Of a stretch of DNA of 61,710 nt, positions 4,726 to 41,642 are shown one piece after another (position 1 is the stretch's first letter; each line of letters starts with the position of its first letter). The DNA is from Eubacteriales Family XIII. Incertae Sedis bacterium (lineage in GTDB: Bacteria > Bacillota > Clostridia > Peptostreptococcales > Anaerovoracaceae), in NCBI GenBank assembly GCA_031266795.1, contig JAISAI010000082.1, positions 1-61,710 of the forward strand, in the 5' to 3' direction. The notes beneath the pieces are model-generated. The model ran no database searches. It was not told where the DNA came from and saw nothing but the letters and a program-made list of their open reading frames with translations. The translations under genes and the position numbers were made by a program.

Positions 4726-4892
4726 GATCCCTCCTTTTGCCTATGTTTATTTTATCACAGACGTAGGCATCACGCTGAAACGCTCAGTTGACAGCGGTGG
4801 TATCTACCGATATACTGAACCTGAGCAGGGTTGCGGCATTGTAGACGTTGCCGCTTGCCATGCTCAGCTGCGATATATCGGGAGGGAATCGG

Positions 4893-5192
4893 ATGCAAAT
4901 CACAACGTCAATCGACGAAAAGCTTACGACCTTATCAATCAGTGGCCGTATTGACACGAATACCAGCTCTACGCTGGAGGCTGAAATCACAAAGGCGCTC
5001 CAATCGAGCCGGGACTTGGTTCTGGACTTTGCCGATGTGGACCACGTCAGCAGCGCGGGCTTTCGCGTTCTCCTGATCGGGCAGAAGATGTCCGTGTCGA
5101 AACAAAGTTCAATGAAAATCATCAACGTCAGCGACTACGTGCGCGCCCTGTTTGATATGGTCGGGCTTCTGAAGGTTCTTATCATTGAGTAG
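4893..5192 (+). CDS. STAS-domain anti-sigma-factor antagonist (SpoIIAA/RsbV-like)
   Basis: GGGAGGGAATCGG precedes the ATG. The product is 99 aa. DFADVDHVSSAGFRVLL carries the conserved phosphorylatable-Ser motif. Confidence 0.75.
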   Translation: MQITTSIDEKLTTLSISGRIDTNTSSTLEAEITKALQSSRDLVLDFADVDHVSSAGFRVLLIGQKMSVSKQSSMKIINVSDYVRALFDMVGLLKVLIIE

Positions 5193-5294
5193 CCTTGATT
5201 ATATCGATAATATTCTTTAGTAAATATTTAACGTACGAAATCTATTCTGATGATATTATAATCGAGTATTGAAAAAGTTGTCGGGAACGCTGCC

Positions 5295-7334
5295 GTGGTT
5301 GCAGAGGGGGTGGACAATTTGAACAACAATATTCTATTACCATTTGAACGGAACAGATACTATCCCGGAAAGCTGCTCACGTCGACGGATTTTCTCGCTG
5401 AGCAGTCCTATCTCAGGAACAAGCGCACTTTTATAAACAGCTTGGTCTACGGTTCCGGCATCATCTGCGGCATGAGCGTCTACAATCTGGACGATACCTC
5501 GATCATGGTCGAGTCCGGCGTCGCTGTGGACGGGCTCGGTCAGGAGATCGTGCTCGAAAATTCCATAGTCAGGAAGCTGTCCGCGATAGACGGCTACAAC
5601 GACTTGAAAAGCAGCGATATATGTCTGTGTCTGCGCTACGGGGAGGAGGACGTCCAGCCCGTCTACGCGGTCGGGTCGCCCGATCGTGAGAGTGATTTCG
5701 AGATGAACCGGATTCGGGAGGGATGTACGCTCTTTCTCGTCGACGCGGACGCGTTGCCCGGCGAGCAGCGCATAGAGTCGGAATTTTTCAGCAGCGACGA
5801 CATCTACGCGGACGGCAATTTTTCGGCGACGCTGAGGATGCCGTCCTCCGTCCCTCGCGGCCGCCGCGTACGGGTCGAGCTTCAGGTGGAAAAGCTTTCG
5901 GATGAGGATCAGGCTTTCGCGCTCGCGGGCGTCTTTGGCGCTCCCGCCTTTACGGGTGAGGGAGGCGAGCATGAATTTCACGTGGATATTCCGGATATAT
6001 ATTTAAAAAAAGGGGAAGTGCGGAGCTTCAATTATTATATAGACGCCAAACAGGAGCCCTCCCCCGAGACTATGATTATCGCAAAACCGGAGGACGTGAA
6101 TATCACGGTCGGCGGCGAAACGCGGCACATGCAGAACAATGTGATGATTCGCCTCTCCATCGTGGATGAGGACACGGTGGACATCGTAGAGCGCGAGCTT
6201 GCGAAGGTGAGCTTGGACGCGCGCTCGTTCGGCGCGGCGCTGGACTACATCCGCTTGGCGGACATCACGATCGAACGCAGCAGCCATACGGTGATCATCA
6301 GCGGCCTGCGGGAGTCCGGTGTGAAATATTACATTCCTGTGATGGCGAACGCGGAGCTCAGACGAGCCTATGCCGCATGGTTTTCGGACGCGCCGGCGGA
6401 CCGCTTCGTCGGCGACCGGGGAGGCGGCAAGGCGTCCGCGTACCAGAATGTCCCCTACGAGCCGGTCTACTCGACGGGGGTCTGTGAGATTCCTCTCGGC
6501 ATAGAGGACAAGAAGGGGCGCATCTACTATTCGGGGGAAATCGTCCACGGGCTCGGCGCCGGCGATGTGCACGTCAGCGTCGGCATAGAATACTTGGCGC
6601 CCGACGAAAAGCTCGGCAAGCCCGCGCGCAACACGATATACGGCGATCCGAACATGTTTGACGACGGCGGCCTGCCCGTGCCGAGGGCGGATCTGGCCGT
6701 GCGCGTCATGAGCGAGCGCGGCAGCTTCATCGTGGCCGCCAAGCTCGCAAAGGCGACAAACCTCGTCGTGCTGCTCGTGCGCTGGACGGCTACGAGGCTA
6801 CCGAGCATGGAGGCGCATACGCTGATGACGCAGATCGCGAGCGACGCGGCCATCTCCCCGCTACAGCCTACGGTGGTGGTCGCGCCGAACGAAAGCCGCT
6901 TTATCGACGTGCGGTTCAAGAACATGGCGCCGTGCGCGCTCGAATACGAGTTGACGGAAAAGAAATCCGGCACGATCACACCCGACGGCATATACACGGC
7001 CTCAAACCGGGAGGGCGTTCATGAGATCCATATATTCAGCCCTGAAAACCCGTTCATATCGACCTATGCCTATGTGGTGGTGAAACAGAAAGACCGCACG
7101 GACGGGGAGTCGTGTGATGTGCGCGGAAGCGGCTGCGGATGTTTATCCCGACGTCTACTACACGACGGAAAGCATGACGTTGAAATGCGTCTCGTTGCTG
7201 TCGCACAGCGGAGTCAATTCCGTGTGGGCCTGCCGCGACATAGGCGCCGCGTCACAGCCGTGGTACACGTTGCTGTCGGTCTTCGATCGCGAAACGGCAA
7301 AAAAGATTCTCACCGCATTTCAGGACTCCGATAA
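5295..7334 (+). CDS. large soluble protein of unknown function with a C-terminal Ig-like module; first gene of the 33-kb array; 3' end doubtful
   Basis: Composition is protein-like up to about 7110 (...STYAYVVVKQKD). An Arg-rich run-on then overlaps the next gene by 218 nt. Start is GTG 5295 or a nearby TTG after GAGGGGG. No signal peptide or TM seen; family not recognised. Confidence 0.6.
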   Translation: MVAEGVDNLNNNILLPFERNRYYPGKLLTSTDFLAEQSYLRNKRTFINSLVYGSGIICGMSVYNLDDTSIMVESGVAVDGLGQEIVLENSIVRKLSAIDGYNDLKSSDICLCLRYGEEDVQPVYAVGSPDRESDFEMNRIREGCTLFLVDADALPGEQRIESEFFSSDDIYADGNFSATLRMPSSVPRGRRVRVELQVEKLSDEDQAFALAGVFGAPAFTGEGGEHEFHVDIPDIYLKKGEVRSFNYYIDAKQEPSPETMIIAKPEDVNITVGGETRHMQNNVMIRLSIVDEDTVDIVERELAKVSLDARSFGAALDYIRLADITIERSSHTVIISGLRESGVKYYIPVMANAELRRAYAAWFSDAPADRFVGDRGGGKASAYQNVPYEPVYSTGVCEIPLGIEDKKGRIYYSGEIVHGLGAGDVHVSVGIEYLAPDEKLGKPARNTIYGDPNMFDDGGLPVPRADLAVRVMSERGSFIVAAKLAKATNLVVLLVRWTATRLPSMEAHTLMTQIASDAAISPLQPTVVVAPNESRFIDVRFKNMAPCALEYELTEKKSGTITPDGIYTASNREGVHEIHIFSPENPFISTYAYVVVKQKDRTDGESCDVRGSGCGCLSRRLLHDGKHDVEMRLVAVAQRSQFRVGLPRHRRRVTAVVHVAVGLRSRNGKKDSHRISGLR

Positions 7335-8004
7335 AAATACGGACAAGCCGCCTTACATCCGCTCGTTCCTGCAAGGCGAGGAACTCTGCTTCCTGTTCCC
7401 CTATCACGCCGAGCGGCCCTTGGCGGAATTTGCGGAGGGGCAGATCACGACGCCGGCCGTGCGCGAGGCGATCTGCGTCAACCTCATCTTGGCCTGTTTG
7501 GAATCGCCCCTGCCGTGGCCCCTGCTCTTTCTCGCGTTCGATCAGGATAAGATCAACGTCGAAAAGGACAACGGCGTATTTCTCAGTACCACATTCGATC
7601 TGACGCAGCTGAATGCGTCGGTATCGGAGGCGGACTGCGTCGGGCGCTGCGCGGAGGTCATGCTGCGCATACTGCGCCTCAACCAGAAAAAGCGGCTGAA
7701 AAGCTATGAGCTTCTGAACCGAAAGGTGGAGCACGGCGCCTATACGCAGTTTTCCGAGGTCTATCACGACTTCAGGCTCACGGGCCTCAGGCGCAAAAAG
7801 CGTTTCAGGCTCTCGCTCATCAGCGCGTTTGTCGTCGCGCGCAAGGACATATTTTTCAGGATACTGCTCGTATTCAGCGTCGTATGCGCCGTGGTTGCGG
7901 CAGTAATGCTCATCAGTTATTTGGCCGTCGGCAGCTTCCCTCTGTTCAAACTGTTCGGGCAGAGCATGGACATGATCGGAACGGAACAGTTGAACGTGAA
8001 ATGA
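7117..8004 (+). CDS. tail-anchored membrane protein: ~245-aa cytoplasmic domain plus one C-terminal TM helix
   Basis: GGGGAG lies 7 nt upstream of ATG 7117. TM helix FRILLVFSVVCAVVAAVMLISYLAV lies near the C-terminus. Family not recognised. Confidence 0.6.
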   Translation: MCAEAAADVYPDVYYTTESMTLKCVSLLSHSGVNSVWACRDIGAASQPWYTLLSVFDRETAKKILTAFQDSDKNTDKPPYIRSFLQGEELCFLFPYHAERPLAEFAEGQITTPAVREAICVNLILACLESPLPWPLLFLAFDQDKINVEKDNGVFLSTTFDLTQLNASVSEADCVGRCAEVMLRILRLNQKKRLKSYELLNRKVEHGAYTQFSEVYHDFRLTGLRRKKRFRLSLISAFVVARKDIFFRILLVFSVVCAVVAAVMLISYLAVGSFPLFKLFGQSMDMIGTEQLNVK

Positions 8005-8011
8005 GGGTAAA

Positions 8012-17798: not shown

Positions 17799-19502
17799 AT
17801 GAACATGGCAGAATATTTATCACCTGGCATCTATGTTGAGGAATACGATTCTTCCCCACGCGCCATCGAGGGCGTAGGAACGAGTACGGCGGGATTTGTC
17901 GGTATCGCGGAAAAGGGGCCGACGGGCGGAGCGCCTGTGCTGGTCACGAACTTCGCGGAATACCTGAGGCAGTTCGGCGGCTATTTGAGCGTGCACACGC
18001 ATGGCGATTTTCGTTTCCTGCCCTACAGCGTGGAGCAGTTTTTCATCAATGGGGGCACGCGCTGCTATATCAGCCGCGTCATACCCGAGGACGCCGCGTC
18101 CGCTGTCGGCAAGGCGGGAGTCCTGACATTTACCGCAGCCAACGAGGGCAAGTGGGGCAACAAGATCACGGTGTCCTTCGTGGCGTCAAACCGCCGCAAA
18201 ATGCAGCTGCTCTCTGCCGAGGGCGAGAACGCGTACAAGGCGAAGACGGTCGTCGGCTTCAAGGAGGGCGATATCGTGACCTTCGACGGCGAAGTCAATC
18301 GCGTGGCGTCCGTCTTCGACGACGTCATCACCTTCGAGAACGCCTTTAGCGCGGATCCCGTGGACGACTCGCTCGTCCCGAAAAAGCTCGTCTACTCTTC
18401 CGAGATGGACGTGATCGTCCGCAGCGACGGCGTCGCGGAAGTCTACAACAGCGTCGACCTGAACCCGCCGTCCCTCGACTACATCGAACGGCGCTTCGCA
18501 CAGAGCGCGATCGTGCAGGTGTCCGCCGACACGACAAATGAGATCGCGTCGCCCGTCGCCGTGATATTCGGCGAGGGCGAAACGAAAGGCACGATCTCCT
18601 TTGAGGGCGGCAAGGACGGCACGATCGAGTCCGTGGACGCGGGCGTATTCATCGGCGTAGACAAGGGGCCCGGCAACCGCACGGGCATCGAGTCGTTCAA
18701 GGAAAACAACATCGTCAGCATCATAGCCGTGCCCGGAGTGACGATCCCCGAAGTCATCGTGTCATTGGTCGCCCACTGCGAGAACGAAAAAAACCGTTTT
18801 GCCGTAATAGACGCGCCCATCGACTTGGTGAAGACGGGCGATCTCGTCGAATACCGGGAGATCGTCGATTCGTCCTTCGCGGCGTTCTACCATCCGTGGC
18901 TGCAGGTGTATGACCGCCTCGCGCAAAAACCGGCGTTTGTGCCGCCGAGCGGCGCCGTGCTTGGCGTCTATTCGCGCTCGGACATCGAACGCGGCGTACA
19001 CAAGGCGCCCGCAAACGAGCCGGTCAGGTGCACGGGGCTCTCGACAAACTACACGGCGAAAGAGCAGGATATACTCAACCCGGCCGCCGTCAACCTCATC
19101 CGCGCCTTGCCCGGCCAAGGCATCCGCATTTGGGGCGCGCGTACGGCGAGTTCGGATTCGAACTTCAAGTACGTCAACGTGCGCAGGCTGTTCATCTACG
19201 TGGAGGAGTCCATCCGCTATTCGACGAACTGGGTCGTGTTCGAGCCGAACAACACCGACCTGTGGGGACGCGTCCAGATGACTATCTCGTCGTTCCTCGG
19301 CGGGCTTTTCTCGTCGGGTATGTTGGCGGGGGAATCCGCGGCGCAGGCCTACTTTGTGGAGATCGGCCCCACGACCATGAGCCGCGACGACATCGCGAAC
19401 GGGCGCTTGATCTGCAACATAGGGATCGCGCCTGTCAGGCCGGCCGAGTTTGTGATCTTCCGCGTGACGCAGTTCACGGCGGAAGCCGGCGGCGAGGAAT
19501 AG
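17799..19502 (+). CDS. contractile tail sheath protein (Afp2-4 / Cis2)
   Basis: N-terminus: AEYLSPGIYVEEYDSSPRAIEGVGTSTAGFVGIAEKGP. C-terminus: IRIWGARTASSDSNFKYVNVRRLFIYVEESI...VVFEPNNTDLWGRV. Confidence 0.92.
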   Translation: MNMAEYLSPGIYVEEYDSSPRAIEGVGTSTAGFVGIAEKGPTGGAPVLVTNFAEYLRQFGGYLSVHTHGDFRFLPYSVEQFFINGGTRCYISRVIPEDAASAVGKAGVLTFTAANEGKWGNKITVSFVASNRRKMQLLSAEGENAYKAKTVVGFKEGDIVTFDGEVNRVASVFDDVITFENAFSADPVDDSLVPKKLVYSSEMDVIVRSDGVAEVYNSVDLNPPSLDYIERRFAQSAIVQVSADTTNEIASPVAVIFGEGETKGTISFEGGKDGTIESVDAGVFIGVDKGPGNRTGIESFKENNIVSIIAVPGVTIPEVIVSLVAHCENEKNRFAVIDAPIDLVKTGDLVEYREIVDSSFAAFYHPWLQVYDRLAQKPAFVPPSGAVLGVYSRSDIERGVHKAPANEPVRCTGLSTNYTAKEQDILNPAAVNLIRALPGQGIRIWGARTASSDSNFKYVNVRRLFIYVEESIRYSTNWVVFEPNNTDLWGRVQMTISSFLGGLFSSGMLAGESAAQAYFVEIGPTTMSRDDIANGRLICNIGIAPVRPAEFVIFRVTQFTAEAGGEE

Positions 19503-19605
19503 GCCGCAAGGCCGGGTACTGAAGTCGCGGGCGCCTTTTCGCAAAGGCCAAGCGACGGAGAAGGACGCGCCCCATGGCGCGCCCTGAAGTGAAAGGAGAT
19601 ACAAA

Positions 19606-20160
19606 ATGGCATTTGGAACAACATCCGCGGCATACCAGCAGTCTACAGGCGCGGCATATCCGTTTACAAAGATGAATTTCGTCGTGTCCATCGGCGATTC
19701 GGGAAGCGGCGCCGCGTTCACGGAGATCACGGGTTTGGACGCGAACGTGGACGTGGTCGAGTTCAGGCAGGGCAATTCGAGCAGCTTGGCGCCCGTCAAG
19801 ATACCCGGCCTCGTCAAGCACGGGAACATCACCATGAAGTATGGCGTCACGACGGCGAGCGACTTCCGCAACTGGATCGCGGCCTGCATCGACTCGCAGC
19901 GCGGGCCCATACCGCGCACGGACATCCTGATAGAGCTCATCGATACGGTCAGCGCGGCGCCAAAGCAGATGGTGGACTCCGTAAGCGCGTCCGCGGAGGG
20001 CGGCATGATGTGGACGCTGACGGGCGCTTGGGTCACAAAGTATTCCGGCGTAGACCTGAACTCCATGCAGAGCGAGGTCGCGATAGAAACGATCGAGATC
20101 GCCTACGAGGAACTGACGACGATCCCGATGCCGACCGCGGCGGCGGCCGCAGCCGAATGA
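19606..20160 (+). CDS. tail tube protein (Phage_T4_gp19 family; Afp1/Cis1a)
   Basis: AAAGGAG RBS. FTKMNFVVSIGDSGSGAAFTEITGLDANVDVVEFRQGNS...GLVKHGNITMKYGV is the typical tube signature. Confidence 0.88.
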   Translation: MAFGTTSAAYQQSTGAAYPFTKMNFVVSIGDSGSGAAFTEITGLDANVDVVEFRQGNSSSLAPVKIPGLVKHGNITMKYGVTTASDFRNWIAACIDSQRGPIPRTDILIELIDTVSAAPKQMVDSVSASAEGGMMWTLTGAWVTKYSGVDLNSMQSEVAIETIEIAYEELTTIPMPTAAAAAAE

Positions 20161-20268
20161 TCCTAAGCCGCATCCGTAAGGAGAGCGGTGGGATAGTCTG
20201 TTTCTTGTTGAGCCCGGGCGGGCGTTCTCGCCCACCCGGGTGAAAGGAGAATTGAAGAGAGGCCAACG

Positions 20269-20631
20269 ATGCAAACTGTATTTGATTTTGAATTACCGAA
20301 GGGTTTTGTCGACGAGAACGGCGGACTGCACAAGCTCGGCAAGATGCGCCTCGCCACGGCGGGGGACGAGATCGGCGCTATGCGCGACCCGCGCGTCATC
20401 TCGAACCCCTCATACCTTTCGATCGTGGTGCTCGCGAGCGTCATCACGGAGATCGAGGGTATCCCGGCTGTGCCGGCAACGTTGATCGAGCGGCTGTATA
20501 CGGCTGATCTCGCGTATCTTCAGGACATGTATCAACGCATCAACGATATAGACCCTCCGACAATCACGGTCGTGTGCCCGGAGTGCAGCCATACGTTTGA
20601 GGCGCCGGTAAATTTTACACGAGAGGGATAG
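20269..20631 (+). CDS. small CIS-locus protein, phage tail-assembly-chaperone-like (Afp6 position)
   Basis: FELPKGFVDENGGLHKLGKMRLATAGDEIGAMRDPRV...LYTADLAYLQDMYQRIN. It occupies the chaperone position between the tube paralogues. Confidence 0.6.
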   Translation: MQTVFDFELPKGFVDENGGLHKLGKMRLATAGDEIGAMRDPRVISNPSYLSIVVLASVITEIEGIPAVPATLIERLYTADLAYLQDMYQRINDIDPPTITVVCPECSHTFEAPVNFTREG

Positions 20632-20651
20632 CGCTGTACCCGGAAGATGAG

Positions 20652-20834
20652 ATGTACAAGGAGATGTCGTTCATCTCATACTACTTCCACTGGGGGCGCG
20701 ACGAGGTCATGGCGCTCGACCATGCCGCCCGCAGGCGATGGTGCGAGGAAATCTCCGCCATCAACGCGGATCTCACTCCCTCCGAAGGCAAAGGCGGCAA
20801 AGAAGTGAGCATTACCGATATGCGCTTTAGCTAA
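20652..20834 (+). CDS. small conserved CIS-locus protein (YYFHW...RRRW motif); possibly made as a -1 frameshift extension of 20269-20631
   Basis: MSFISYYFHWGRDEVMALDHAARRRWCEEISAIN. Its frame is open from 20601, upstream of the ATG. Confidence 0.55.
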   Translation: MYKEMSFISYYFHWGRDEVMALDHAARRRWCEEISAINADLTPSEGKGGKEVSITDMRFS

Positions 20835-20867
20835 AGAGCAGTAACAGATAAAGGGAACGACGGTCAT

Positions 20868-21371
20868 ATGGCATATAATTTTACGTATAGAGACGCCACT
20901 ACGGGCAATTTTCTGGCGTTGAACAAGGGTATGAACCCGCTCGTGAACTACAATTTCATCCTTCGCGTGGAGGCCTTGTTCGATCTGCCGTGTAAGAGTG
21001 TGAAGAGCTTTACGCGCGAAAATGAATATGAACTGATTCAGGAGGGCGGGCGCAACGACTATGTCCACATGCGCCGCAAGCCGATCAGCAGGCCGTTCAC
21101 GCTCGAGGTCGAGCGCTATGTCGGCGTGGACTATCTCGACCCCCTGCCGAACGGCGCGGAGCCGGTACTGCCCATCATCCTGATCGTGTCGCGGCATCCG
21201 GACAATTTTGCCGATGTGAGCGCCTGGGCGCGCAACTACGCGTTCATGGGCTGCGTCGTCATGAAGAAGACTTACGGGGAACTGAACGCGGAACAATCCG
21301 GGCTGCTCGTCGACACGACGACGATCGCTTATCGCGAGATGGTATGCCTCGATATTCCGTTCGGCGGATAG
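20868..21371 (+). CDS. second tail tube paralogue (Phage_T4_gp19 family; Afp5/Cis1b)
   Basis: VNYNFILRVEALFDLPCKSVKSFTRENEYELIQEGGRNDYVHMRRKPISRPFTLEVERYV. Confidence 0.8.
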   Translation: MAYNFTYRDATTGNFLALNKGMNPLVNYNFILRVEALFDLPCKSVKSFTRENEYELIQEGGRNDYVHMRRKPISRPFTLEVERYVGVDYLDPLPNGAEPVLPIILIVSRHPDNFADVSAWARNYAFMGCVVMKKTYGELNAEQSGLLVDTTTIAYREMVCLDIPFGG

Positions 21372-21383
21372 GCTTGGAATGAT

Positions 21384-23741
21384 ATGATTACGGCGGGACG
21401 GCCTCTCAAACTGAATATAACGCGAGGGATGACCTTATTCACGCCGCCCTCCGCCGCGTGGTCCGACCTGTTCTACGAGCGGATCGCGGGGGGCTACGCG
21501 CTCATGGCGATGAACTTCACGCCGGAAAACATGCTCCTGCTCATGTACGCGCCGGCGACGGCGCCGATATACGGCGGCGGCATGACGAACCTCACGAACA
21601 TCGAGCACACGGAGTATGCACGAAACTACCTCCTGAATATCGTCAACAACGTCGTGAACAGGGTGTTGTTCATGGACGAGAGCCGCGCTACGTGGCGCGA
21701 CGAGGTCTATGTGTCGAACGTCCTGAGAAAGCTCGGGGTCACGGACGTAGACTTCTTCATGAGGGAAGCGCGTTCCGTCATGAACGATGGCAGGCAGACG
21801 TGGCGGCTCCTGAAGCTCTACCGCGAAAACGAGGGGCTGCTGCGTGAGGCCATGGAGCGCGAACGCGTGCGGGACGCCGCGCCCGCCACGGCGACGAAGG
21901 AGAAAGATGGAGCCCGTGCGGCGGAAGGGAGGAGCGCCATGCCCGCGGCGCTTCACAGCGAGATCATACGCCGGCTCCGGACATCCGAGATACTGTCGAG
22001 CATGAAGGCCTACGCCACGCGTACGCAGGATGCGCGCGTATCGAACTCTTTTGACCTGTCGGCGGCGGAGTTCGCCTTTATGCTGAACGCGGAAAACCTG
22101 TTTGAACACAGAAGTCGCGTGCTCGGCGGCGATGTGACGCTCGTGCACCGGCACACGAACGCGTACGAGACGGCGGACGCGCCGCCCGCGCCCGCGCGTG
22201 AGGACGACGCCGTGGGCCGCGCCGTCTGCGCCGCCATCATCAACATCGCGGAACACGCGGCCTTGACGCGCCTCAGCATGGCGCGGACGGAGGTAAACGT
22301 GCGCGTCGACCTCTCGCGGGCCTTGCCCGATGCCGCGCGGATCACGCTCGAACGCCTGAAATCGCACTACGCGGAGCGCGGCTACGCGACGTCCACGGAG
22401 CGGCTGTTTGAGAGCAGATTGGCGGAGCTTGACGCGTATGAATCGAGCGTGATCCGGCAGCTCGTTTCCGAAACGGAGCGCTTCATGCCCGCGGAACGGC
22501 TGCTTCTGGCGGAAGCGGAAAAGGGGCGCGTCGACGCGCGCGGGACGAAAGCCGGCTCGAAGGAGTACACGAAAGCCGTACGGGCATTCCACGAGGCGCA
22601 GTCGGAAATACAGCGTGAACGCGAGCGTATCGAGCGCATCGTCCGGCAGTCCGCGGCGCCCGGCGGCGGCGAAATGTTGCGCATATTCACGGAACGGGCG
22701 CAGGGCGCCCCGGCGCGTGAGCGTCCCTACGGCGATGTCCCGGATATGATAGAGAGCGTCACGGGATTCATACCGGGCGGCGCGGATCTGTCCCCGGAAG
22801 AGATGATCCACCCGCGTGAGGCGACGGCGCTTCGCGAGGAAGAGGGGACGGCCGGCGAAGCCGTTTCCGGCGGCGGCGCGGCGGCCGCGGGCGGTCTCGC
22901 GCGCGGCCTGAAAGAGGAGATGGACGCCTACGACAGGCGCAACAAGGAGGCGGCGCGGGCCTTGGAGGAACGCATACGTTCGTTGCGCGCGAACGCCGCT
23001 ACGCCGGGAGAAGACGAGCGCAGACGGTCGGCGCGGGAAGCCCTTGAGGCCTTGGACGAACCGGAAAAGCTCATGAACGCCCTGCTCGAAGGACGGCCGG
23101 ACGCCGCGCGCGGCGGCGCGGGCGCGCGGCCGCCGGCGCTTATGCTGCTGCTCGAGGCGGCGTCCCCCGGGGAACGGGCGCTCTACGAGCGCGTGATCAA
23201 CTATGTGCAGGGCGCGGGCGCTCTGGCAGGCGGCGCCGTGCGGCCTGTCAGCCCGCCTGCGTTCAACGCGGAAATCACCGAAATCCGCGAGCGGGACGCC
23301 GCAGAGATGAGACACATCGAACGTGAATACGCGGAACGCGGGGAGTTTGTCCGGGAGCGTCTCGAACGCGTAGCGGAGCGCGAGCGCACGGCGCCGCCGC
23401 GCGGGGAGAGAGCCTATGCCGGGCATCCGCGCCGCGGCGCGCCTATGGTTCACCGGCAACAGGAGCAGACGGGGCTGTCCGATGAGGACAGAGCGCGCAT
23501 CGCCGCAGAGATCGGGGGGCATACGCGCAGCGAGGTGACGACGCGGGAGACTATCCTGCGTGAACAGATGAACGAGACCGAAATCAACCGGGCCGTCAGG
23601 GAGGCGGAGGCCAAGAAAGCGGACGACATCGGCGAGATGATAAATCGCGCATTGGCGGTTCAGATGAACACGATCGCCGGGCGCGTATACCATCAGGTGG
23701 AACGGCGTTTGACGATGGAACGCGCCAGAAGAGGAAAGTAG
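21384..23741 (+). CDS. putative tail-length tape-measure protein (Afp14 position), 785 aa, Arg/Glu/Ala-rich helical
   Basis: Lies between the tube and tube-initiator genes. Composition is long, charged and low-complexity helical, with a conserved-looking tail: AGRVYHQVERRLTMERARRGK. Confidence 0.55.
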   Translation: MITAGRPLKLNITRGMTLFTPPSAAWSDLFYERIAGGYALMAMNFTPENMLLLMYAPATAPIYGGGMTNLTNIEHTEYARNYLLNIVNNVVNRVLFMDESRATWRDEVYVSNVLRKLGVTDVDFFMREARSVMNDGRQTWRLLKLYRENEGLLREAMERERVRDAAPATATKEKDGARAAEGRSAMPAALHSEIIRRLRTSEILSSMKAYATRTQDARVSNSFDLSAAEFAFMLNAENLFEHRSRVLGGDVTLVHRHTNAYETADAPPAPAREDDAVGRAVCAAIINIAEHAALTRLSMARTEVNVRVDLSRALPDAARITLERLKSHYAERGYATSTERLFESRLAELDAYESSVIRQLVSETERFMPAERLLLAEAEKGRVDARGTKAGSKEYTKAVRAFHEAQSEIQRERERIERIVRQSAAPGGGEMLRIFTERAQGAPARERPYGDVPDMIESVTGFIPGGADLSPEEMIHPREATALREEEGTAGEAVSGGGAAAAGGLARGLKEEMDAYDRRNKEAARALEERIRSLRANAATPGEDERRRSAREALEALDEPEKLMNALLEGRPDAARGGAGARPPALMLLLEAASPGERALYERVINYVQGAGALAGGAVRPVSPPAFNAEITEIRERDAAEMRHIEREYAERGEFVRERLERVAERERTAPPRGERAYAGHPRRGAPMVHRQQEQTGLSDEDRARIAAEIGGHTRSEVTTRETILREQMNETEINRAVREAEAKKADDIGEMINRALAVQMNTIAGRVYHQVERRLTMERARRGK

Positions 23742-23751
23742 GGAATCAGCC

Positions 23752-24522
23752 ATGGATTTTATGAGCGGCCTCGCCAGCGCCGCAGGAATGATCGAAGTCG
23801 CTAAGATCGTCGCGTTTGACCGGCGCGCTTCCGATAAGGACAAACCTCAATATTCCCCCGCAGCGATTGCGGGCGACATGCTGTCAGGCAAGCCCCCGGC
23901 GCCGACGCCGACCGACGCTAAGCGGCGTGAATATACTATCCAGTTCAATCCGAGCGAGCTGTCGATCGACGCGAACCGCGAGATAAAAAATATCACGGAT
24001 ACGCAGGCCGGGCCGGGCGCCCCTGTGACGGAAGGCACGCAGACGACCTCCCAAAATTCGTATGACCCGCCCACCATCACACTATCGACGCGCCTTGTGT
24101 TTGACGAGGTCAACCTGAGCGACGCCTTTGTCCAAGAGAATATCACTTCCCTGGCGTCCGCTTCCGCTGTCAAAGCGGGCGTTTCAAATGTCATGGCGGC
24201 GTTCGGCAAGGAATGGACCGTGCAACCCATCGTGGAAGGCTTCATCGGCGCGCTGCGCAATGACAAGACGCGCCTCATACGCTTTGAGTGGGCGGAATTT
24301 TACTTCACGGGTTGGCTCAATCACCTAAGCTGTGAATACGTGATGTTCTCGCCGTCGGGCAAGCCCATCCGGGCTTTCGTGAATCTGCGGCTCAAGTGCG
24401 ATCTGGATTCCGACAGGAACGGTTGGTTGGCGGACTACAAGAATATGTTCGGGCCTGACGCCGAAAAGATGCTTCCGGGAGTTTCGGGCGCGTTGCCCAA
24501 TCTGGGTAGCTTAGGATTTTGA
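23752..24522 (+). CDS. baseplate tube-initiator protein (Afp7-like N-terminal tube fold, no LysM), paralogue 1
   Basis: YTIQFNPSELSIDANRE ... FEWAEFYFTGWLNHLSCEYVMFSPSGKPIRAFVNLRLK. Confidence 0.7.
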   Translation: MDFMSGLASAAGMIEVAKIVAFDRRASDKDKPQYSPAAIAGDMLSGKPPAPTPTDAKRREYTIQFNPSELSIDANREIKNITDTQAGPGAPVTEGTQTTSQNSYDPPTITLSTRLVFDEVNLSDAFVQENITSLASASAVKAGVSNVMAAFGKEWTVQPIVEGFIGALRNDKTRLIRFEWAEFYFTGWLNHLSCEYVMFSPSGKPIRAFVNLRLKCDLDSDRNGWLADYKNMFGPDAEKMLPGVSGALPNLGSLGF

Positions 24523-24534
24523 AGGGAGACGAGG

Positions 24535-25290
24535 ATGGGTTTTTTTGATAAAATCGGAAGCGCGGCGGGGATGCTCGCCGGTAAAATCGAAAAGGCTGTG
24601 TTGATCGTTGACAGCACGGCGGAGAAAACGGATCCGGGCGGCGGCGCGGCGGGAGCTTCCCGCTTGGGCGCTGCGGCTTCGCTGCTCAGCTCAGCCGCTT
24701 CCGCCGGCGCTTCCGGAGGCGGCACGACTACGATCGAGGTTCAATTCAATCCGAATACGATCAGGATCGACGCAAACGCTGAGAGCATGAGGGCGAAGTA
24801 CATGCTCAGCCACGTGGAGGGCCTGCCGAACACGACAAATCGCGCGGCGTCCATCGTCCTCAACATAGATCTCATCTTCGACGCCGTCCAAAACAGCGAC
24901 GCTTTTCACGCTGACGGCCTGCGTCTTTCCGCTTCGGACATCGTTTCCCACGGGGGCGCTTTTATTGCCGGAAAAAAATACAGCGTGATGAAGCAGACGA
25001 ACGGCATGGTTTCCCTGCTCATAGGCATCCAATCCCCCGTCGAATTCAAATGGGGCGCGTTCTCGTTTTCAGGCATCGTTTCGGAGGTGCAGGCCAGATA
25101 CCTCATGTTTTCGCCGTCAGGGCATCCGATACGCAGCAAAGTTTCCGTGCGCATCGTACAGTCCTTGACTAAGGAAAAAGAGTTCCTGTATTGGGATAAC
25201 GCCTATAACAATTTTTTCGGCAGCGAAGATGTGCTCGCCGCGCACGCGAGGGACGCGTTACAGACGCAGCAGTCGTTTTTTAATCTGTAA
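24535..25290 (+). CDS. baseplate tube-initiator protein (Afp7-like, no LysM), paralogue 2
   Basis: TTIEVQFNPNTIRIDANAES ... FKWGAFSFSGIVSEVQARYLMFSPSGHPIRSKVSVRIVQ. It is collinear with 23752-24522. Confidence 0.7.
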   Translation: MGFFDKIGSAAGMLAGKIEKAVLIVDSTAEKTDPGGGAAGASRLGAAASLLSSAASAGASGGGTTTIEVQFNPNTIRIDANAESMRAKYMLSHVEGLPNTTNRAASIVLNIDLIFDAVQNSDAFHADGLRLSASDIVSHGGAFIAGKKYSVMKQTNGMVSLLIGIQSPVEFKWGAFSFSGIVSEVQARYLMFSPSGHPIRSKVSVRIVQSLTKEKEFLYWDNAYNNFFGSEDVLAAHARDALQTQQSFFNL

Positions 25291-25333
25291 TAGGGAGCGT
25301 TAGGATGTCAGTAATGAAAGGGATTTTTGAAAA

Positions 25334-26512
25334 GTGGCGTTGATGTCGGGCTTGCCGGGAGTGCTACCCGGAAGCGGCTCCGTTAAGTACGAGGAGCTGC
25401 ACAAAAAATACGGAGGTTTCGACCACCCGCAGGCGAAGATCGAGATAGACGGGGAGGTCTTTGCCGAGAAGCATACGACGATGATGATCAACGACATCTC
25501 CATTGAGCTGTCGAGCGGCTTTGAAGCGTCGATAGCGCGTTTTCGCATCTACAAGGTGTACAACCTGAAAACGTCCTCCTTTCAGTTTGAGGAAGTGAAA
25601 AGGCACGCCATCCTCGGCGTGTCTGTAAATGTATCGTTGGGCTATATGGGCGCCTTGGAGCCTGTGTTTACGGGCTTTATTGCATCGGTGGACTTCTGCT
25701 ACGATCCGGATTCGCTGCCCTATATCGAAATCACGGGTATGGACGCGAAGGGCGTCATGATGGCCTCCTCCCATGCCGCCCGGCTCAGGGCCAAATCGTA
25801 CGGTGAGGGTGTGAAAGAGATCCTGAGTCGAACGGCCTACAAAAAGATGCAGACGGCAAAAATCATCAGCGCCATTGACGTGTCAAATACGCCGGACATG
25901 AAGGCGGGCGGCGACACGGCCAGCGCAGAGACAATAGAGATGGTGTCGGAGAGCGATTACGAATTCATCATAAAGGCGGCGAAAAAATTCAACTTTGAAT
26001 TTTTCATCGAGCAGGGCAAGGTCATCTTTCGCAAGGCGCGCAGCGTCACAGCGCCGCTCATGGATCTGTCGCCGGGCAAGGGTATCATTTCCTTTCGCCT
26101 CGGCTACAGCCTGACCGGCATGGTGGAAGAGATCGAGGTGCGCGCGATGAATCCGGGCACGGGGAAAAAAGTGTCCGCCAAGGGCAAGTACAACCAAAAC
26201 TTGTCGACAGCGGGCAAGGCAAAGGCGCTGATCGGGGGCAGCAAACGCATCTACATCGATCCGACGGTCTTCACGCAGGAACAGGCGAACGCACGCCTCG
26301 ATTCACTCATGACGCAGATGTCCTATCGGCTCGGCACGATCGAGAGCGAGTGTATCGGTATTCCGGATCTCGTGCCGGGGCGTTTCGTCAACGTCAAGGT
26401 CGGCTCCCCCGGCGACAACAGCTTTTACCTTACGAATGTGACGCATGATTTTCAGAGTACGGGCGCATATAGGACGCGTATCACGGGTTCCGCGCCTTCG
26501 GTAAAGAAATAG
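25334..26512 (+). CDS. baseplate hub, phage late control gene D (P2 gpD) family
   Basis: PQAKIEIDGEVF...ISIELSSGFEASIARFRIY ... ECIGIPDLVPGRFVNVKVGSPGDNSFYLTNVTHDF. Start is GTG 25334 (or ATG 25343). Confidence 0.75.
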   Translation: MALMSGLPGVLPGSGSVKYEELHKKYGGFDHPQAKIEIDGEVFAEKHTTMMINDISIELSSGFEASIARFRIYKVYNLKTSSFQFEEVKRHAILGVSVNVSLGYMGALEPVFTGFIASVDFCYDPDSLPYIEITGMDAKGVMMASSHAARLRAKSYGEGVKEILSRTAYKKMQTAKIISAIDVSNTPDMKAGGDTASAETIEMVSESDYEFIIKAAKKFNFEFFIEQGKVIFRKARSVTAPLMDLSPGKGIISFRLGYSLTGMVEEIEVRAMNPGTGKKVSAKGKYNQNLSTAGKAKALIGGSKRIYIDPTVFTQEQANARLDSLMTQMSYRLGTIESECIGIPDLVPGRFVNVKVGSPGDNSFYLTNVTHDFQSTGAYRTRITGSAPSVKK

Positions 26513-26524
26513 GAGAAGGATACT

Positions 26525-27337
26525 ATGGCGCTTTACGACATCATAGACGAAATCGCGGGCAAGCAGATTACAAAGAGCGATACGGGGGATCCACGCGTCT
26601 ACGGCGCGATGATCGGCCTCGTCGCCGAGAACTACGACAAGGATATGCCGGGCCGCATATGTGTGACGCTTCCGGCGCGCGAAGACGATGCGAACAAGCT
26701 GCAGTGGGCGCGCGTCGCCCATCCGTCCGGCGGCAGCCTTTGGGGGCATTACTTCCTGCCCGAGGTCGGCGACCAGGTGCTCGTCGTGTTCGAGGGGGGC
26801 AACATTGAAAAGCCTTACGTCGTGGGCTGCTTGTCGAAGGACAAGGACGAATTTCTCAGTAAGTCGGTCGACAAGGACAATACGATAAAACACATCGTCA
26901 CGAGGCACGGGAGTGAACTGAAATTTGAGGATAAGGCCAAAGGAGAAGGAGATAAGGATAGTATCACGCTCACGACGGCCAAAACTCAGCATACGCTGAA
27001 ATTGGACAACGAAAACGGGCTCATCGAGCTGACGGACAAGGACGGAAAAAATTCGATCCGCATGAAGACGGTGGACGGCACGATGAACATCAAGGCTAAG
27101 AGCCGCGTCACGATAGAGGTGGGCAACGGGATCAAGCTCGTCATGAACGGTGAAACGGGCGCGGTCAGCCTCGACTGCAAGGAGCTGAACATCAAAGCGA
27201 CGCGGAAGCTGAGCGCGAAGACTGACGGTATGATGAAGGTGGACGCGTCGCAGATCGGGACGAACGCTTCGTCGATGTACAAGATAGAAAGCGGCGGCAT
27301 CGTAATGATCGGGGGCAGCCCGGTGAAGATAGGTTAG
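26525..27337 (+). CDS. central spike, gpV/VgrG-like OB-fold plus beta-helix (Afp8/Cis8)
   Basis: GLVAENYDKDMPGRICVTLP...WARVAHPSGGSLWGHYFLPEVGDQVLVVFEGGNIEKPYVVGCL, followed by short beta-helix repeats. Confidence 0.85.
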   Translation: MALYDIIDEIAGKQITKSDTGDPRVYGAMIGLVAENYDKDMPGRICVTLPAREDDANKLQWARVAHPSGGSLWGHYFLPEVGDQVLVVFEGGNIEKPYVVGCLSKDKDEFLSKSVDKDNTIKHIVTRHGSELKFEDKAKGEGDKDSITLTTAKTQHTLKLDNENGLIELTDKDGKNSIRMKTVDGTMNIKAKSRVTIEVGNGIKLVMNGETGAVSLDCKELNIKATRKLSAKTDGMMKVDASQIGTNASSMYKIESGGIVMIGGSPVKIG

Positions 27338-27350
27338 GAGAGGAGCAGGG

Positions 27351-27776
27351 ATGATGGCGAGAGCTGAGGATAACTCTTTTCTGGGCAGCGGCATGAAATT
27401 CCCGCCGCAAGCGAACAAGGCGACGGGCAGGTTTGCCGTGTCCTCCGGCGCGCAGAGCGTGAAGGAATCGGTCTACCTGATACTCATGACGTCGGTCGGG
27501 GAACGGCGCCTCTTGCCGGAGTTCGGGAGCAGCCTCGCGCGCTACGCCTTTATGGATATGACGCTCACGAACCTGAGCATGCTGCGCAACGATGTCATGG
27601 ATATCATCCTGTCGCAGGAATCGAGGATATCCGATGTCGAGGTCGCGGCCGACGCGGAGAGCAGGGACGACTGCGTCGTCATCAGCATCGCCTACAGGAT
27701 CGCCGAGACAAACGCCGTAGACAATCTCGTGTTCCCGTTTTATCTGAAGTCCACTTCTGAGGAGGCTGACGTATGA
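27351..27776 (+). CDS. baseplate wedge protein, GPW/gp25 family (Afp9/Cis9)
   Basis: FLGSGMKFP...SVKESVYLILMTSVGERRLLPEFGSSLARYAF. Confidence 0.85.
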   Translation: MMARAEDNSFLGSGMKFPPQANKATGRFAVSSGAQSVKESVYLILMTSVGERRLLPEFGSSLARYAFMDMTLTNLSMLRNDVMDIILSQESRISDVEVAADAESRDDCVVISIAYRIAETNAVDNLVFPFYLKSTSEEADV

Positions 27777-30700
27777 GCGGACGGGATGGGTACAAATTGG
27801 AGAGATACCTCATTGACCCGAGGCGCGCGGACGACCTGCTGGCCGAGATCGCGGCGCGGGCCGCTTCCTATACGCCGGAGTGGGTTTTTGACCCGAAAAA
27901 TCCGGACATCGGCTCCGTGCTCACTATCCTGTTCGCCGGGCAGATGTCGGGCAGCATCGACCGCCTGAACCAATTGGTGAACAAGTACCGCATGGAATTC
28001 GTCAACATGCTGAATGTCGGGCTGCTGCCGGCTTCCCCCGCTACGGGCGTCTGCGTGTTCGATCTCGTGCAGAATGTCGTGCCGGGCGTGGATATGCCGA
28101 GCGGGGTCAGGCTTCTTGGCTATGATGAGGAGGCGACGTCCGCCGTCGTGTTTGAGACCCTGTCGCATCTGCATGTGACGAACGCGTCCGTCTCCGATGT
28201 CGCCATGTCCTCATCCCATTTCGGAAAGATCATCCCCCTGCGCGGGACGGCTACGGCGGCGCGGCCCGCGTGGATACCGGCGCCGGCCTCCGGGGAGGAC
28301 AGCGAACAAGCGAACGACGCCATACGCCTGTTTGATTTCAGCGAAGAGGGCGTCGGGCAAAACGCGCTGCTCCTGTATCATGAAAACGCGTTTGACGTAC
28401 CGCCGCGCTCAAACGTGTTCGTCGAGGTTTTCGCGCCCGACGGCAAGCCGCTCGCAGATACCCTCGCTGATTCGTCGGCTTATCGCTGGAGCTATTTTGA
28501 CGGCGCGGGATTCACGCCGTTCACGGAGGCGGTGGATGTGGATGGCGTCCTCTCCCTGCGCAGGGACGGCGCGATGGAGAAGACGCCTATCCGCGGTGAC
28601 GTGGCATGCGACGTCGTGCGCGTCGACGCGGTCGGCCCGGTGAACGGCAGCCTCGATCTGGGGAACATCCTCATCCATTCGAGCGCCGTGGATACGCCTC
28701 CCGACTTCGCGAACAACAACGAAGCCGATCTACCTGTGGGCGAGTTCATGCCTTTCGGGAATACGGCGTCCCTCTTTGACGACTGCTATATCGGCAGCGA
28801 CAGCGTCTTTTCACACGATGGCGCTGAGATAACGCTCCGCTTTTCCCTGAGTTACCGGGACAAGCTCGTGACATTCACGCCGGAGCAAGAGGCGGCGGAC
28901 CTTAAGATCATCAAGCCGAAACCGAGGCAGATCGTCTTTACGACCGCACACACGCGCGCGGACAGGGTATCGGCTGAGTATTTCAACGGCACGGGGTGGT
29001 GCAGGCTGACGGGGGATGAGCAGTGGGCCACGATATTTGACGGCAGCGTGTCGGGGCCGGTGGAGCTGACGTTTACCTGCCCTCAGGGATGGGAGCCGAT
29101 CAGCATCGGCGCGAACACGGGCCGCTGCGTCAGGCTCCGCATTGAGAGCGCCGACAACTGTTACCTCCAGCCCTGCGTGCACCATATGCCGCTCGTTCAC
29201 GGGTTTTCGATTTCCTATGAGTATACGGAGAGCAAGAAGCAGCCCACCTATATGGAAAGGCTCAGCGGCGTTGAAACCGTCGACCTCACGCGCGCGATCG
29301 CCGGCGGCGTCCCCTTCACCGCTTTTGAGGCCTTCCCCTCCGTGGGCAACAATCTGTATATCGGCTTGGATAGCAAGCCCGGCGGCCGGCCGCTCAGCCT
29401 GTACTTCGCGTTGCAGGGCTCCGCGCGGCGCGCGGGCGTGCCCCTGCGTTTCGAATACTCGACGGGCAGGGGATTCACTCACATGCGCGTGGAGGATGGG
29501 ACGGACGGTTTTTCCAAGAGCGGCGTCGTCACATTCAACCCGGGCGACGACTTCACTTTTTTGGAACAGATGGGGCTGTCGCGCTGCTGGATACGAATCG
29601 TGGACGCGGAGGGCTTCTTTGACGAGGCGGGCAGATACCATCCCATAATCACGGACATCATTCCGAACGCCGTGGCGATCCACAATGTCCAGACGCTTGA
29701 TGAGGACGTCTTTTACGTGGACGAGGCCGCGCCGAATATGTCGTTCAGGCTGTCGTCCGACAATATCCTGTCAGCGGACGTCTATGTCAACGAGCGCAAC
29801 CTCCCGAAGCCCGTCATAGAAAAGATGATCGCGGAGGAACCGGAACGCGTGCGCGTGGAGTACGACGAGCGCGGGGAGGTGAGCGGATTTCATGTCCTTT
29901 GGAACGAAGTCGACAATTTTGACGGCTCGGCGCCGGGCGACAGGCATTACGTGATAGACCGTCTTCACAACACTATACGGTTTGGGGACGGTATCGGCGT
30001 ACGCATACCCGCCGCCTCCTCCGAGCCGGCATTCACCGTCCGCGTCAGGCGCTGCGACGGCGCGACGGGCAATCTTCCGGCCGGCTCCCTGACGGATCTG
30101 ATGGATCGGGTGCTCTACGTCGGCGACGTATTCAACCCCCTCGCGACGAGCGGCGGCAGCGACATGGAGAGCGTAGCGCTTGCCATGGAGCGCGTTTCGG
30201 GCGTCGTCAACTCCGGCGGCCGCTTGGTGAGCGAAAGGGACTACGAGCGCGAGACGCTGAACTTTTCCGAAATGATCGGGAGCGCGCGCTGCATCGTAGA
30301 GAGCCCGCTCACGCACGGGGAGTTTTCGCTGAACATCGCGCTGCTCATGCGCGACTACTTGGACGGCTCCTATTCGTTTGAAAACGTGCGCGACGGCCTT
30401 GTGGATAGAATCCGGCGGAAGTGCGAAGCGACGTTGACCGCCGACTGCATCCGGGTGACGGAGCCGACCTTTGTCCGCATAGATGTCGACGTATGGGTTT
30501 TCGAGCCGAACAAGAAGGCTCGATACGACACGGCGGCGTTGATCCGCGAGCGCGTCGCGGAGCGTCTCGATCCCTTGCCCCGCGAGGATGCGCGGGGTAC
30601 GATGTACGGGGGATGGCGTATCGGGGAAATGCCCGCGCCCGAGCAGATCGAGATCATGCTGTACGGCATATCCGGGGACGCGGTGATAAAGCGGTTTACG

Positions 30701-30817: not shown

Positions 30818-30851
30818 AAATTATTATCTTATATAATAGTAACGGAAGGGG

Positions 30852-32945: not shown

Positions 32946-32978
32946 ACGCTACCCGCGAGTGATGGAAAGGAACGGTAT

Positions 32979-34176: not shown

Positions 34177-34467
34177 ATGGCTGACGCCAATACCGGATTG
34201 AAGAACGGCAGGGGCCCCTCCGGCGCGGATCGCGACGACGACTTCGAGATCGAGATACGTATCGAGAAACCGGTCATCGATCCGATAGACCGGGCCGGCA
34301 ACATGTTCGACCGGGAGGCGCGGCGATATTCCGGCGGCATCAATACGGCGCAGTCCGTATTTTCCGGCCAAACGCTGTTCAACGCCACGCCTGAGAACGC
34401 AGGCTTGGATACGCGAAAAAAACAAGCAACGCCAAAGGAGCCTTATGGGACACATTCTGATAGTTGA
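34177..34467 (+). CDS. possible small disordered acidic/basic protein in the only sizeable gap of the CIS operon
   Basis: GAGGGA lies 6 nt upstream of ATG 34177. The predicted 96-aa product is low in complexity, and the ORF overlaps the response-regulator start by 23 nt. It could be non-coding. Confidence 0.3.
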   Translation: MADANTGLKNGRGPSGADRDDDFEIEIRIEKPVIDPIDRAGNMFDREARRYSGGINTAQSVFSGQTLFNATPENAGLDTRKKQATPKEPYGTHSDS

Positions 34468-37545: not shown

Positions 37546-37549
37546 CGAT

Positions 37550-41347: not shown

Positions 41348-41523
41348 TTTGAGATGATTTTCAGTATATCCACCACTTAATGTATCAACCCTTACACCGC
41401 GCCGGATTCCGTAAGGAGTCATGGGGCTGAGTTCTTGTTAACTTTTCTTTGGTTAGCACCATCAGTATACCATAGGCAAGGGGGATAATCCGAATCCGCC
41501 TTGCCTATCCGTTCAATCCTCTA

Positions 41524-41580: not shown

Positions 41581-41642
41581 CCACTTTGTTGCTGCCGTTT
41601 TGTAGTTAGTCTCATATCTTCATCATATTACGTTCAATATAA

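Follow-up and report, generated by a model that had tools for sequence, protein, structure and literature searches.

A conserved six-gene envelope module headed by a tail-fibre homologue precedes the contractile injection system operon of a clostridial lineage

The window analyzed here, a stretch of 61,710 nucleotides from a Family XIII bacterium of the Clostridia (contig JAISAI010000082.1, assembly GCA_031266795.1), contains a complete contractile injection system (CIS) operon that is directly preceded by six genes on the + strand (g1 to g6), and this six-gene module is an integral, vertically co-inherited part of one clostridial CIS lineage. Judged from sequence comparisons, g1 encodes the CIS13/eBAP3-type tail fibre of this CIS, shifted from its usual place after the Tail_P2_I gene to the head of the operon. 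The other five genes are predicted to encode a tail-anchored membrane protein (g2), a sensor-like protein with four transmembrane (TM) segments (g3), a bitopic MORN-repeat protein (g4), a secreted TolC-fold protein (g5), and a bitopic helical protein (g6), and these five, together with their fixed tie to the relocated fibre gene, are apparently undescribed. We propose a docking role for the relocated fibre, which would connect the baseplate with a complex of g2–g6 that spans the envelope, a reading whose chances we put a little short of even.

Co-inheritance of the module and the CIS

Full-length homologues of g5 number in the hundreds across Oscillospiraceae, 'Family XIII' and related metagenome-assembled genomes (MAGs); two of them (49% and 44% identity), located on independent metagenome contigs, stand in the same six-gene order directly before the Pvc16_N, sheath, and tube genes. 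In a species scan with one representative genome per species, g5 relatives were found in 201 species; the best 80 of these loci were inspected and their content was scored by tblastn with the window proteins. The genes g1–g4 were collinear in 61 of the 64 loci with enough upstream flank, while the remaining three (L059, L069, and L074) lacked g3 only and kept g1, g2, g4, g5, and g6. The last gene, g6, was present in 79 of the 80 loci, the exception being cut at the contig end, and it was followed by a sheath gene in 59 of the 62 loci with at least 4.5 kb of downstream sequence (median distance 1.9 kb), with Pvc16_N lying between the two in 49 of the 59. Co-occurrence and synteny with CIS loci, which the initial annotation had named among the checks on an association, were thus strongly positive. 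In three related Lachnospiraceae (L053, L056, and L057) g6 is followed by a gene for a secreted protein of more than 2,300 codons that exceeds the fetched stretch (from ~14900 in the coordinates of these loci).

The carriers belong to Oscillospiraceae, Lachnospiraceae, Family XIII, and Gracilibacteraceae, with eleven genera named in the scan. They include the isolates Hungatella hathewayi WAL-18680 (NZ_JH379027.1, ~857–879 kb), Oscillibacter valericigenes An890, and Pseudoflavonifractor phocaeensis An507, while the Flavonifractor, Anaerotignum, and Agathobaculum carriers are MAGs. The entire module and CIS, in a Hungatella-like version, were also seen on a contig (L049, JAWZDV010000022.1) labelled as part of a Bacteroides thetaiotaomicron MAG; this contig is probably mis-binned.

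In L059 the gene order is AAA, Pvc16, g1, g2, g4, g5, g6, and sheath, which places the module inside the structural operon, and across 40 species the pairwise divergence of every module domain follows that of the sheath (r 0.66–0.90). Because of this synteny, the L059 arrangement, and the way in which module divergence tracks sheath divergence, we conclude that the module and the CIS travelled together.

A tail-fibre homologue at the head of the operon

The initial annotation had taken the CIS for fibre-less, a view that has to be abandoned, since g1 is a homologue of CIS13/eBAP3-type fibres and has relatives in the fibre position of outgroup operons. The NCBIfam model NF053767 (CIS13 family contractile injection system protein) matches residues 9–139 of g1 with an E-value of 9.4e−22. 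The score of the whole protein (77.8 bits, with 130 of 392 profile positions matched) is far under the equivalog cut-off of 370, and g1 therefore shares just the N-terminal domain with that family. In the AlphaFold2 (AF2) model (mean predicted local distance difference test score, pLDDT, 76) a low-confidence but extremely conserved N-terminal peptide leads into a helix and then into a string of beta-sandwich domains, for which Foldseek returned generic Ig/macroglobulin-like matches only. No TM segment was found in g1 by hydropathy, the lone peak (residues 477–495) falling within a beta-sandwich. No useful match came from searching the g1 and g5 sequences against solved structures, BLASTP of g1–g6 against the CIS proteins of the same window found no relation, and the g1 profile matched All3314, the crown protein Cis19 of the Anabaena system discussed below, weakly at its N-terminus and at a consistent position (E 0.31).

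Searching 1.8 billion cluster representatives with the g1 profile yielded 329 clusters at E ≤ 1e−30 and ~6,600 at E ≤ 1e−3; among the matches listed (150 clusters) these were mostly full-length, g1-sized proteins, and the weaker clusters are probably partial matches to the anchor domain. A search from a distant member of the family (P0387) led to g1 relatives in Paenibacillus, Cohnella, Wukongibacter, and Anaeromicrobium. The window protein aligns over its full length with the Wukongibacter protein (28% identity, E 2e−54) and over residues 1–491 with that of Paenibacillus (26% identity); the first ~120 residues are ~50% identical to the outgroup fibre-position proteins, with 25–28% identity to these relatives overall. 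In all five outgroup contexts viewed, the g1 relative comes directly after Tail_P2_I and ends a CIS operon collinear with that of the window, the genes 3' of it are unrelated, and in the four loci tested by tblastn no g2–g6 relatives were found near the fibre gene.

These outgroup loci have the fibre gene where most are encoded. A 2026 catalogue of extracellular CIS (eCIS) fibres (PMC12923769) defined five types of N-terminal baseplate-anchor domain and reported about 90% of the fibres to be encoded 3' of Tail_P2_I and the baseplate genes. The window departs from this arrangement, with Tail_P2_I (32979–34088) followed by a response regulator gene and g1 sitting 26 kb upstream. As the outgroup fibres keep the usual place and have no g2–g6 beside them (four loci tested), fibre relocation and the module go together. 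It was also observed that the window Tail_P2_I has 369 residues vs. 657–705 in the outgroup CIS, aligning to their C-terminal half only, and the missing N-terminal part may be related to the altered fibre arrangement.

According to the same catalogue, the crown-domain-like eBAP3 anchor is common in Bacillota and goes with Tail_P2_I baseplates, and its supplement lists eBAP3 fibres in Oscillibacter, Flavonifractor, Anaerotignum, Faecalibacterium, and Anaerotruncus (PMC12923769). The Oscillibacter entry (589 residues, domains 8–84, 91–150, and 389–498) has the same architecture as g1 and is probably its orthologue. Like the eBAP3/CIS13-family fibres of Bacillota (PMC12923769; NF053767), g1 has an N-terminal anchor domain and full-length relatives, but its gene heads the operon, packed with five envelope genes, and its tip is conserved rather than hypervariable. 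Receptor-binding tips of eCIS fibres evolve rapidly (PMC12923769), whereas the distal 200 residues of g1 reach a conservation of 0.52–0.74 per 40-residue block, vs. 0.66–0.82 in the anchor (61 species), and a rapidly diversifying C-terminal region was not found.

One alternative interpretation would be an ordinary eCIS in which g1 is a normal target-binding fibre, with g2–g6 forming a separate, co-regulated envelope system that, for instance, prepares or controls particle release through the thick wall or remodels the wall before lysis. It would agree with the listing of the probable g1 orthologue as an eBAP3 eCIS tail fibre (PMC12923769), with the collinearity with Paenibacillus-type loci treated as extracellular, and with the presence of an eCIS-type AAA ATPase. 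Left unexplained, however, are the exit of the fibre gene from a near-universal place, the constant company of g2–g6 (61 of 64 loci plus the three variants), and the module inside the structural operon of L059; related Bacillota CIS show no g2–g6 beside the fibre gene, and searches of g2–g6 with Pfam, NCBIfam, and PHROGs detected neither a holin or endolysin nor any other function in lysis. We therefore consider an ordinary eCIS rather unlikely, and turn to the envelope proteins to which, in the docking proposal, the fibre would bind.

Table 1. Coordinates of the module and of the associated features in the window (ORF, open reading frame)
Feature	Position	Strand	Description
STAS-domain gene	4893-5192	+	Pfam STAS, E 4.5e-14; anti-sigma antagonist-like, directly upstream of the module
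AT-rich intergenic region	5193-5318	+	TATAAT at 5257-5262; Shine-Dalgarno-like AGAGGGGG ahead of TTG 5319
g1, soluble CIS13/eBAP3-type tail-fibre homologue	5319-7334 (ORF start 5295/5319)	+	N-terminal baseplate-anchor domain, then beta-sandwich domains
g2, tail-anchored membrane protein	7117-8004 (ORF start 7114/7117)	+	~240-residue cytoplasmic domain, one C-terminal TM segment, ~27-residue outside tail (predicted)
g3, sensor-like protein with four TM segments	8012-10402	+	Variable ~300-residue ectodomain, HAMP, conserved ~320-residue cytoplasmic domain (predicted)
g4, bitopic MORN protein	10419-11636	+	69-residue cytoplasmic N-terminus, TM 70-88, outside MORN repeats, then C-terminal domain (predicted)
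g5, secreted TolC-fold protein	11636-13705	+	Signal peptide, Pfam OEP, two extra C-terminal beta-sandwich domains
g6, bitopic helical protein	13707-16334	+	Short cytoplasmic N-terminus, TM 18-36, ~840-residue extracytoplasmic part (predicted)
CIS structural operon	16352-34088	+	Pfam matches; collinear with Paenibacillus, Wukongibacter, and Anaeromicrobium CIS
OmpR-type response regulator, CIS AAA ATPase, soluble histidine kinase	34445-38260	+	Pfam; response regulator 34445-35182, histidine kinase 37550-38260

Five envelope proteins and a possible docking complex

TM segments and topology were assigned to all six products with a simple hydropathy scan, which predicts g1, the larger part of g2, g3 in its C-terminal half, and the g4 N-terminus to be cytoplasmic, and the g3 ectodomain, the MORN part of g4, the TolC-fold g5, and nearly all of g6 to lie outside the membrane. 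The initial annotation had described the products in much the same terms (a soluble Ig-tailed protein, a tail-anchored membrane protein, a polytopic HAMP/cyclase-like/TPR protein, TM-anchored MORN and secreted TolC-like proteins, and a TM-anchored coiled-coil protein of 875 residues), and most of these labels stood. For g3, the HAMP domain and four TM segments (7–25, 333–351, 364–382, and 418–436) were retained, while the cyclase-like and TPR labels received sub-threshold matches only (E 0.26–0.5 and 0.026, respectively), the former not being established; for g6, the N-terminal TM and the long helical ectodomain were recovered and the coiled-coil label was backed by weak matches only. PADLOC defence-system models matched none of g1–g6, and PHROGs matches were limited to g3 and g4, in families of unknown function.

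No family match was found for g2 in Pfam, NCBIfam, PADLOC or PHROGs. Its outside tail ends in IGTE, where I287, G288, T289, and E290 are invariant or nearly so in an alignment of 28 orthologues. A relation to pseudokinases was considered and dropped (NEK1 match E 0.14; hhalign against a PknB kinase sequence, probability 0.07). The MORN repeats of g4 were recognized by Pfam (E 2.7e−11) and by profile comparison with MORN proteins in the PDB (E 9e−22), and its best-conserved 40-residue block (residues 41–80) runs through the juxtamembrane stretch on the cytoplasmic side into the beginning of the TM segment. The g2 outside tail and the g4 juxtamembrane segment are thus the best-conserved stretches of their proteins.

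The HAMP domain of g3 passes the Pfam cut-off (27.3 vs. 25 bits), was found in 11 of 28 orthologues, and is seconded by a profile match to chemoreceptor HAMP regions in the PDB (E 2e−5). Conservation is low in the ectodomain (0.14–0.37) vs. the C-terminal part (0.4–0.6), and the Pfam scan of the 28 orthologues found no output domain (kinase, cyclase or methyl-accepting chemotaxis protein). Such a sensor-like pattern could mean that the module serves mainly in signalling, with g3 and accessory envelope proteins sensing wall stress or cell contact and controlling CIS expression via the histidine kinase and the OmpR-type regulator. This kinase consists of HisKA and HATPase_c only, without a TM segment or sensor domain, and could take its input from g3; in many relatives the genes for the regulator, AAA ATPase, and kinase are found directly 5' of g1 (tblastn, called genes) instead of closing the operon as they do in the window, and a STAS gene precedes the module in four loci, the window included. 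On the other hand, g3 is the sole dispensable member (absent in 3 of 64 loci) while g2, g4, g5, and g6 persist, which fits a regulatory role for g3 alone and not for the whole module, no output domain of g3 is recognizable, and the ~2,300 residues of conserved, structural-looking extracytoplasmic g4, g5, and g6 exceed the needs of a sensor. A predominantly signalling function is, in our judgement, distinctly unlikely.

The g5 protein matches Pfam OEP above threshold (39.9 vs. 22 bits), and its AF2 monomer model (pLDDT 78) is similar in Foldseek to TolC, OprM, and CusC (E 7e−9 to 1e−6; TM-score 0.5–0.6 on target). The segments equivalent to the barrel (87–103 and 317–347) are short, with a pLDDT of ~55–68 in the first and below 50 for most of the second (323–346) in this monomer model, and they hold the most conserved motifs of the family, RW[TS]PLLSFK and KG[EQ]I[DS]G[TI]RY. 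As in TolC and other outer-membrane factors, then, the fold and the OEP match are present, but the barrel hairpins are short and poorly modelled, two C-terminal domains are added, no pump partner accompanies the gene, and the Clostridia hosts lack an outer membrane. In g6, conserved terminal domains surround the helical middle of the ectodomain; an exact look-up of g6 in a contig index gave no match.

Together, the TolC fold of g5 and the N-terminal TM and long helical ectodomain of g6, a topology like that of membrane-fusion adaptors, might suggest a type-I-like duct for toxin export, unrelated to CIS mechanics, and 'toxin secretion systems' were noted beside one Acutalibacteraceae eCIS in a preprint (10.1101/2025.07.29.667580). 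We regard such a duct as very unlikely: no ABC (ATP-binding cassette), RND (resistance-nodulation-division) or MFS (major facilitator superfamily) inner-membrane transporter was found in the module or in the syntenic loci examined, an outer membrane is lacking in the hosts, the g5 model shows vestigial barrel segments, and the fibre gene and the fixed CIS link would remain unexplained.

From the observed gene content, order, conservation, and homologies and the predicted topologies, we infer that the module may serve in docking; a docking, trigger or conduit complex had been suggested in the initial annotation. In the docking proposal, the fibre would no longer, or no longer only, bind a foreign cell. 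Its N-terminal domain would sit on the baseplate periphery, as eBAP domains are thought to do, and its conserved distal domains would bind the cytoplasmic faces of g2, g3, and g4, which in turn would be held with g5 and g6 in an assembly reaching into or through the thick wall. In a cell with one membrane and a thick wall, this would dock the extended particle on the cytoplasmic membrane, where it would fire at or through the cell's own envelope, comparable to a type VI secretion system (T6SS), the thylakoid-anchored CIS, and CisA-dependent firing. Within this assembly, the variable ectodomain and the HAMP domain may let g3 serve as a sensor or gate, possibly with output to the histidine kinase that has no sensor domain. 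By established dimensions, a CIS tube is too wide to pass a trimer of the TolC type, so g5 is unlikely to be a conduit, and trimeric struts would be the more likely arrangement, although the strut is a guess.

We favour docking because the fibre gene is found relocated where the module is present, because conservation over the distal 200 residues of g1 almost reaches that of its anchor, because the g4 juxtamembrane segment and the g2 outside tail are the best-conserved parts of their proteins, and because there are precedents for membrane anchoring in Cis13 (PMC8894136), CisA (PMC12237407), and Hbor_38620 (PMC11566945). One of these is the thylakoid-anchored CIS of Anabaena (tCIS), where the fibre Cis13 anchors the particle in the thylakoid membrane with a TM helix and is accompanied by the Cis12 extension and the Cis19 crown (PMC8894136). 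As proposed here, too, a baseplate-bound fibre-like protein would link the particle to a membrane, and the weak g1-Cis19 match points the same way. In contrast to Cis13, g1 has no TM helix, which would leave the membrane anchor to other proteins; the membrane in question is a monoderm's cytoplasmic membrane, and the tCIS has no counterpart of the five extra proteins. The word 'transmembrane' is not mentioned in the eCIS fibre catalogue (PMC12923769).

In Streptomyces coelicolor, the membrane adaptor CisA is needed for firing of the CIS and is predicted to contact the baseplate (PMC12237407). Accessory membrane proteins are thus encoded in a monoderm CIS cluster in both cases, but CisA is one bitopic protein, disordered at its cytoplasmic N-terminus and substrate-binding-like in its outside domain, whose gene follows those of the baseplate, and its description sets it apart from g2–g6, which are five proteins with other folds (PMC12237407). 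The haloarchaeal T6SS, an eCIS-like cluster, operates while bound to the cytoplasmic membrane in a cell that lacks an outer membrane, and its nearest Cis11 relatives were placed in Bacillota (PMC11566945). Its putative anchor, Hbor_38620, is a conserved membrane protein encoded upstream of the core genes, as the module is here; it is, however, a single protein that has six TM helices and a cytoplasmic domain of ~150 residues, and no TolC-like, MORN or HAMP parts were described (PMC11566945). A multi-protein, envelope-spanning dock for the baseplate would also resemble TssJ-TssL-TssM of the T6SS, which differs from the module in spanning the two membranes of diderm cells, and no TssJ, TssL or TssM homologues were found among g1–g6 with Pfam or NCBIfam. 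The CIS lineage is already catalogued, as g1 itself probably is, and anchoring of CIS in membranes is a known theme from T6SS, tCIS, CisA, and haloarchaea; for the five envelope proteins or their fixed tie to a relocated fibre gene we found no published description, in line with the initial annotation, which had recognized no described system of this composition.

Several points weigh against docking. The inspection covered the best 80 of 201 loci, L053, L056, and L057 are uninformative on CIS presence (without being counter-examples), and the outgroup operons were viewed at their 3' ends, so that module absence holds for the neighbourhood of the fibre gene only. Partial correlations of the mirror-tree type singled out no specific partner for g1. 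The architecture of g1 is also conserved in Paenibacillus-type CIS without g2–g6 beside the fibre gene, and since it is kept where no module was seen, conservation of the tip alone is not decisive for the module as its partner. The width of a TolC-type trimer counts against a passage for the tube through g5, and the module has no evident enzyme for peptidoglycan remodelling.

The conserved tip, and the co-inheritance of the fibre with surface-exposed proteins, could also be read as fibre and receptor inherited together, with g2–g6 displayed on the surface as a receptor for, or self-protection against, particles of sister cells. We consider this extremely improbable, as it is pure speculation without precedent among CIS, and the outgroup fibres of the same architecture have no such genes beside them. 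For the docking proposal in its broadest form, in which gut and termite-gut Clostridia run a CIS in the fashion of a T6SS, docked by the relocated fibre to a five-protein trans-envelope complex that includes a TolC-fold protein, our expectation is lower than for docking as such, and we hold it as doubtful.

Operon layout, surrounding genes and implications

In the ORF listing of the window, the six + strand genes run straight into the CIS, with the Pvc16_N (DUF4255) cap gene next after g6 and beginning at 16352. The spacings are 7 nucleotides between g2 and g3, 16 between g3 and g4, −1 between g4 and g5 (TAATG), 1 between g5 and g6, and 17 between g6 and Pvc16_N. The layout given in the initial annotation (5295–16334) was confirmed, with the genes at 5319–16334, and so were its gap lengths from g2 onward, but it had left the g1/g2 junction undescribed, where the g1 ORF overlaps g2 by ~220 nucleotides. 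Orthologues of g1 terminate at about residues 597–605, and the conserved part of the window protein ends near 7110, which agrees with the '600 aa' reported earlier; the ORF itself has no stop at this point (~7110) and continues for 75 codons to 7334. When one G is added to the run of four at 7104–7107, g1 ends in ...TDGGVV followed by a TGA (7115–7117) over the ATG of g2 (TGATG). Because a single extra G restores the stop where the orthologues end, a 1-nucleotide indel at the junction (7098–7120), either real or an assembly error, is probable. Apparent g1-g2, g2-g3, and g5-g6 fusion ORFs, which would have spoken strongly for interaction, were artefacts of ORF extension, with stop codons present.

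The intergenic region ahead of g1 (5193–5318) is a candidate promoter or leader of the module. It has a G+C content of 30% over 5193–5294 and the TATAAT noted earlier, while its −35 element is weak, and the best sigma-70-like match lies elsewhere, at 4788–4816, 5' of the STAS gene (11 of 12 consensus positions). STAS homologues were also found 5' of g1 in L065, L067, and L069, and the STAS gene is possibly a regulatory companion of the module. Terminator-like sites were at background level (15 found vs. 12.9 expected), as were promoter-like counts, and none of the 15 lies in an intergenic gap. The tight spacing and the gaps free of terminator-like sites fit the co-transcription of the module with the CIS that had been suggested.

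The CIS operon is complete, with the Pvc16_N cap, sheath, tube, a tape-measure-like gene, two CIS_tube genes, a LysM/YQBQ-like gene, and spike, followed in its 3' part by two baseplate J genes and Tail_P2_I. Between the cap and sheath genes lies a gene for a protein of 254 residues (16939–17703) without a family match, which is conserved in nearly all related loci (26–44% identity). Further downstream, a stretch with a G+C content of 45–52% vs. ~60% (41000–46000), carrying TraX, a GNAT acetyltransferase, and an IS110-family transposase (44166–45482), is probably an insertion. Two giant genes are located on the − strand (45750–54242, 2,830 residues, and 54262–57810, 1,182 residues), the first with 14 Listeria-Bacteroides (Flg_new) repeats, which suggests cell-surface proteins. 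A scan of viral contigs with the sheath returned one unrelated fragment.

Among thick-walled, single-membrane bacteria, Streptomyces has CIS that fire within the cell, aided by a single adaptor, and no comparable case is known in Firmicutes. The module is a concrete candidate for an envelope apparatus, and its presence in culturable gut commensals makes the mode of action of Gram-positive CIS directly testable. By listing g1 among target-binding fibres, CIS catalogues may misread how a whole lineage acts. In addition, with this module a TolC-fold protein is put to use in bacteria that have no outer membrane, and the docking complex, if true, would be the first trans-envelope apparatus for a CIS in Gram-positive bacteria.

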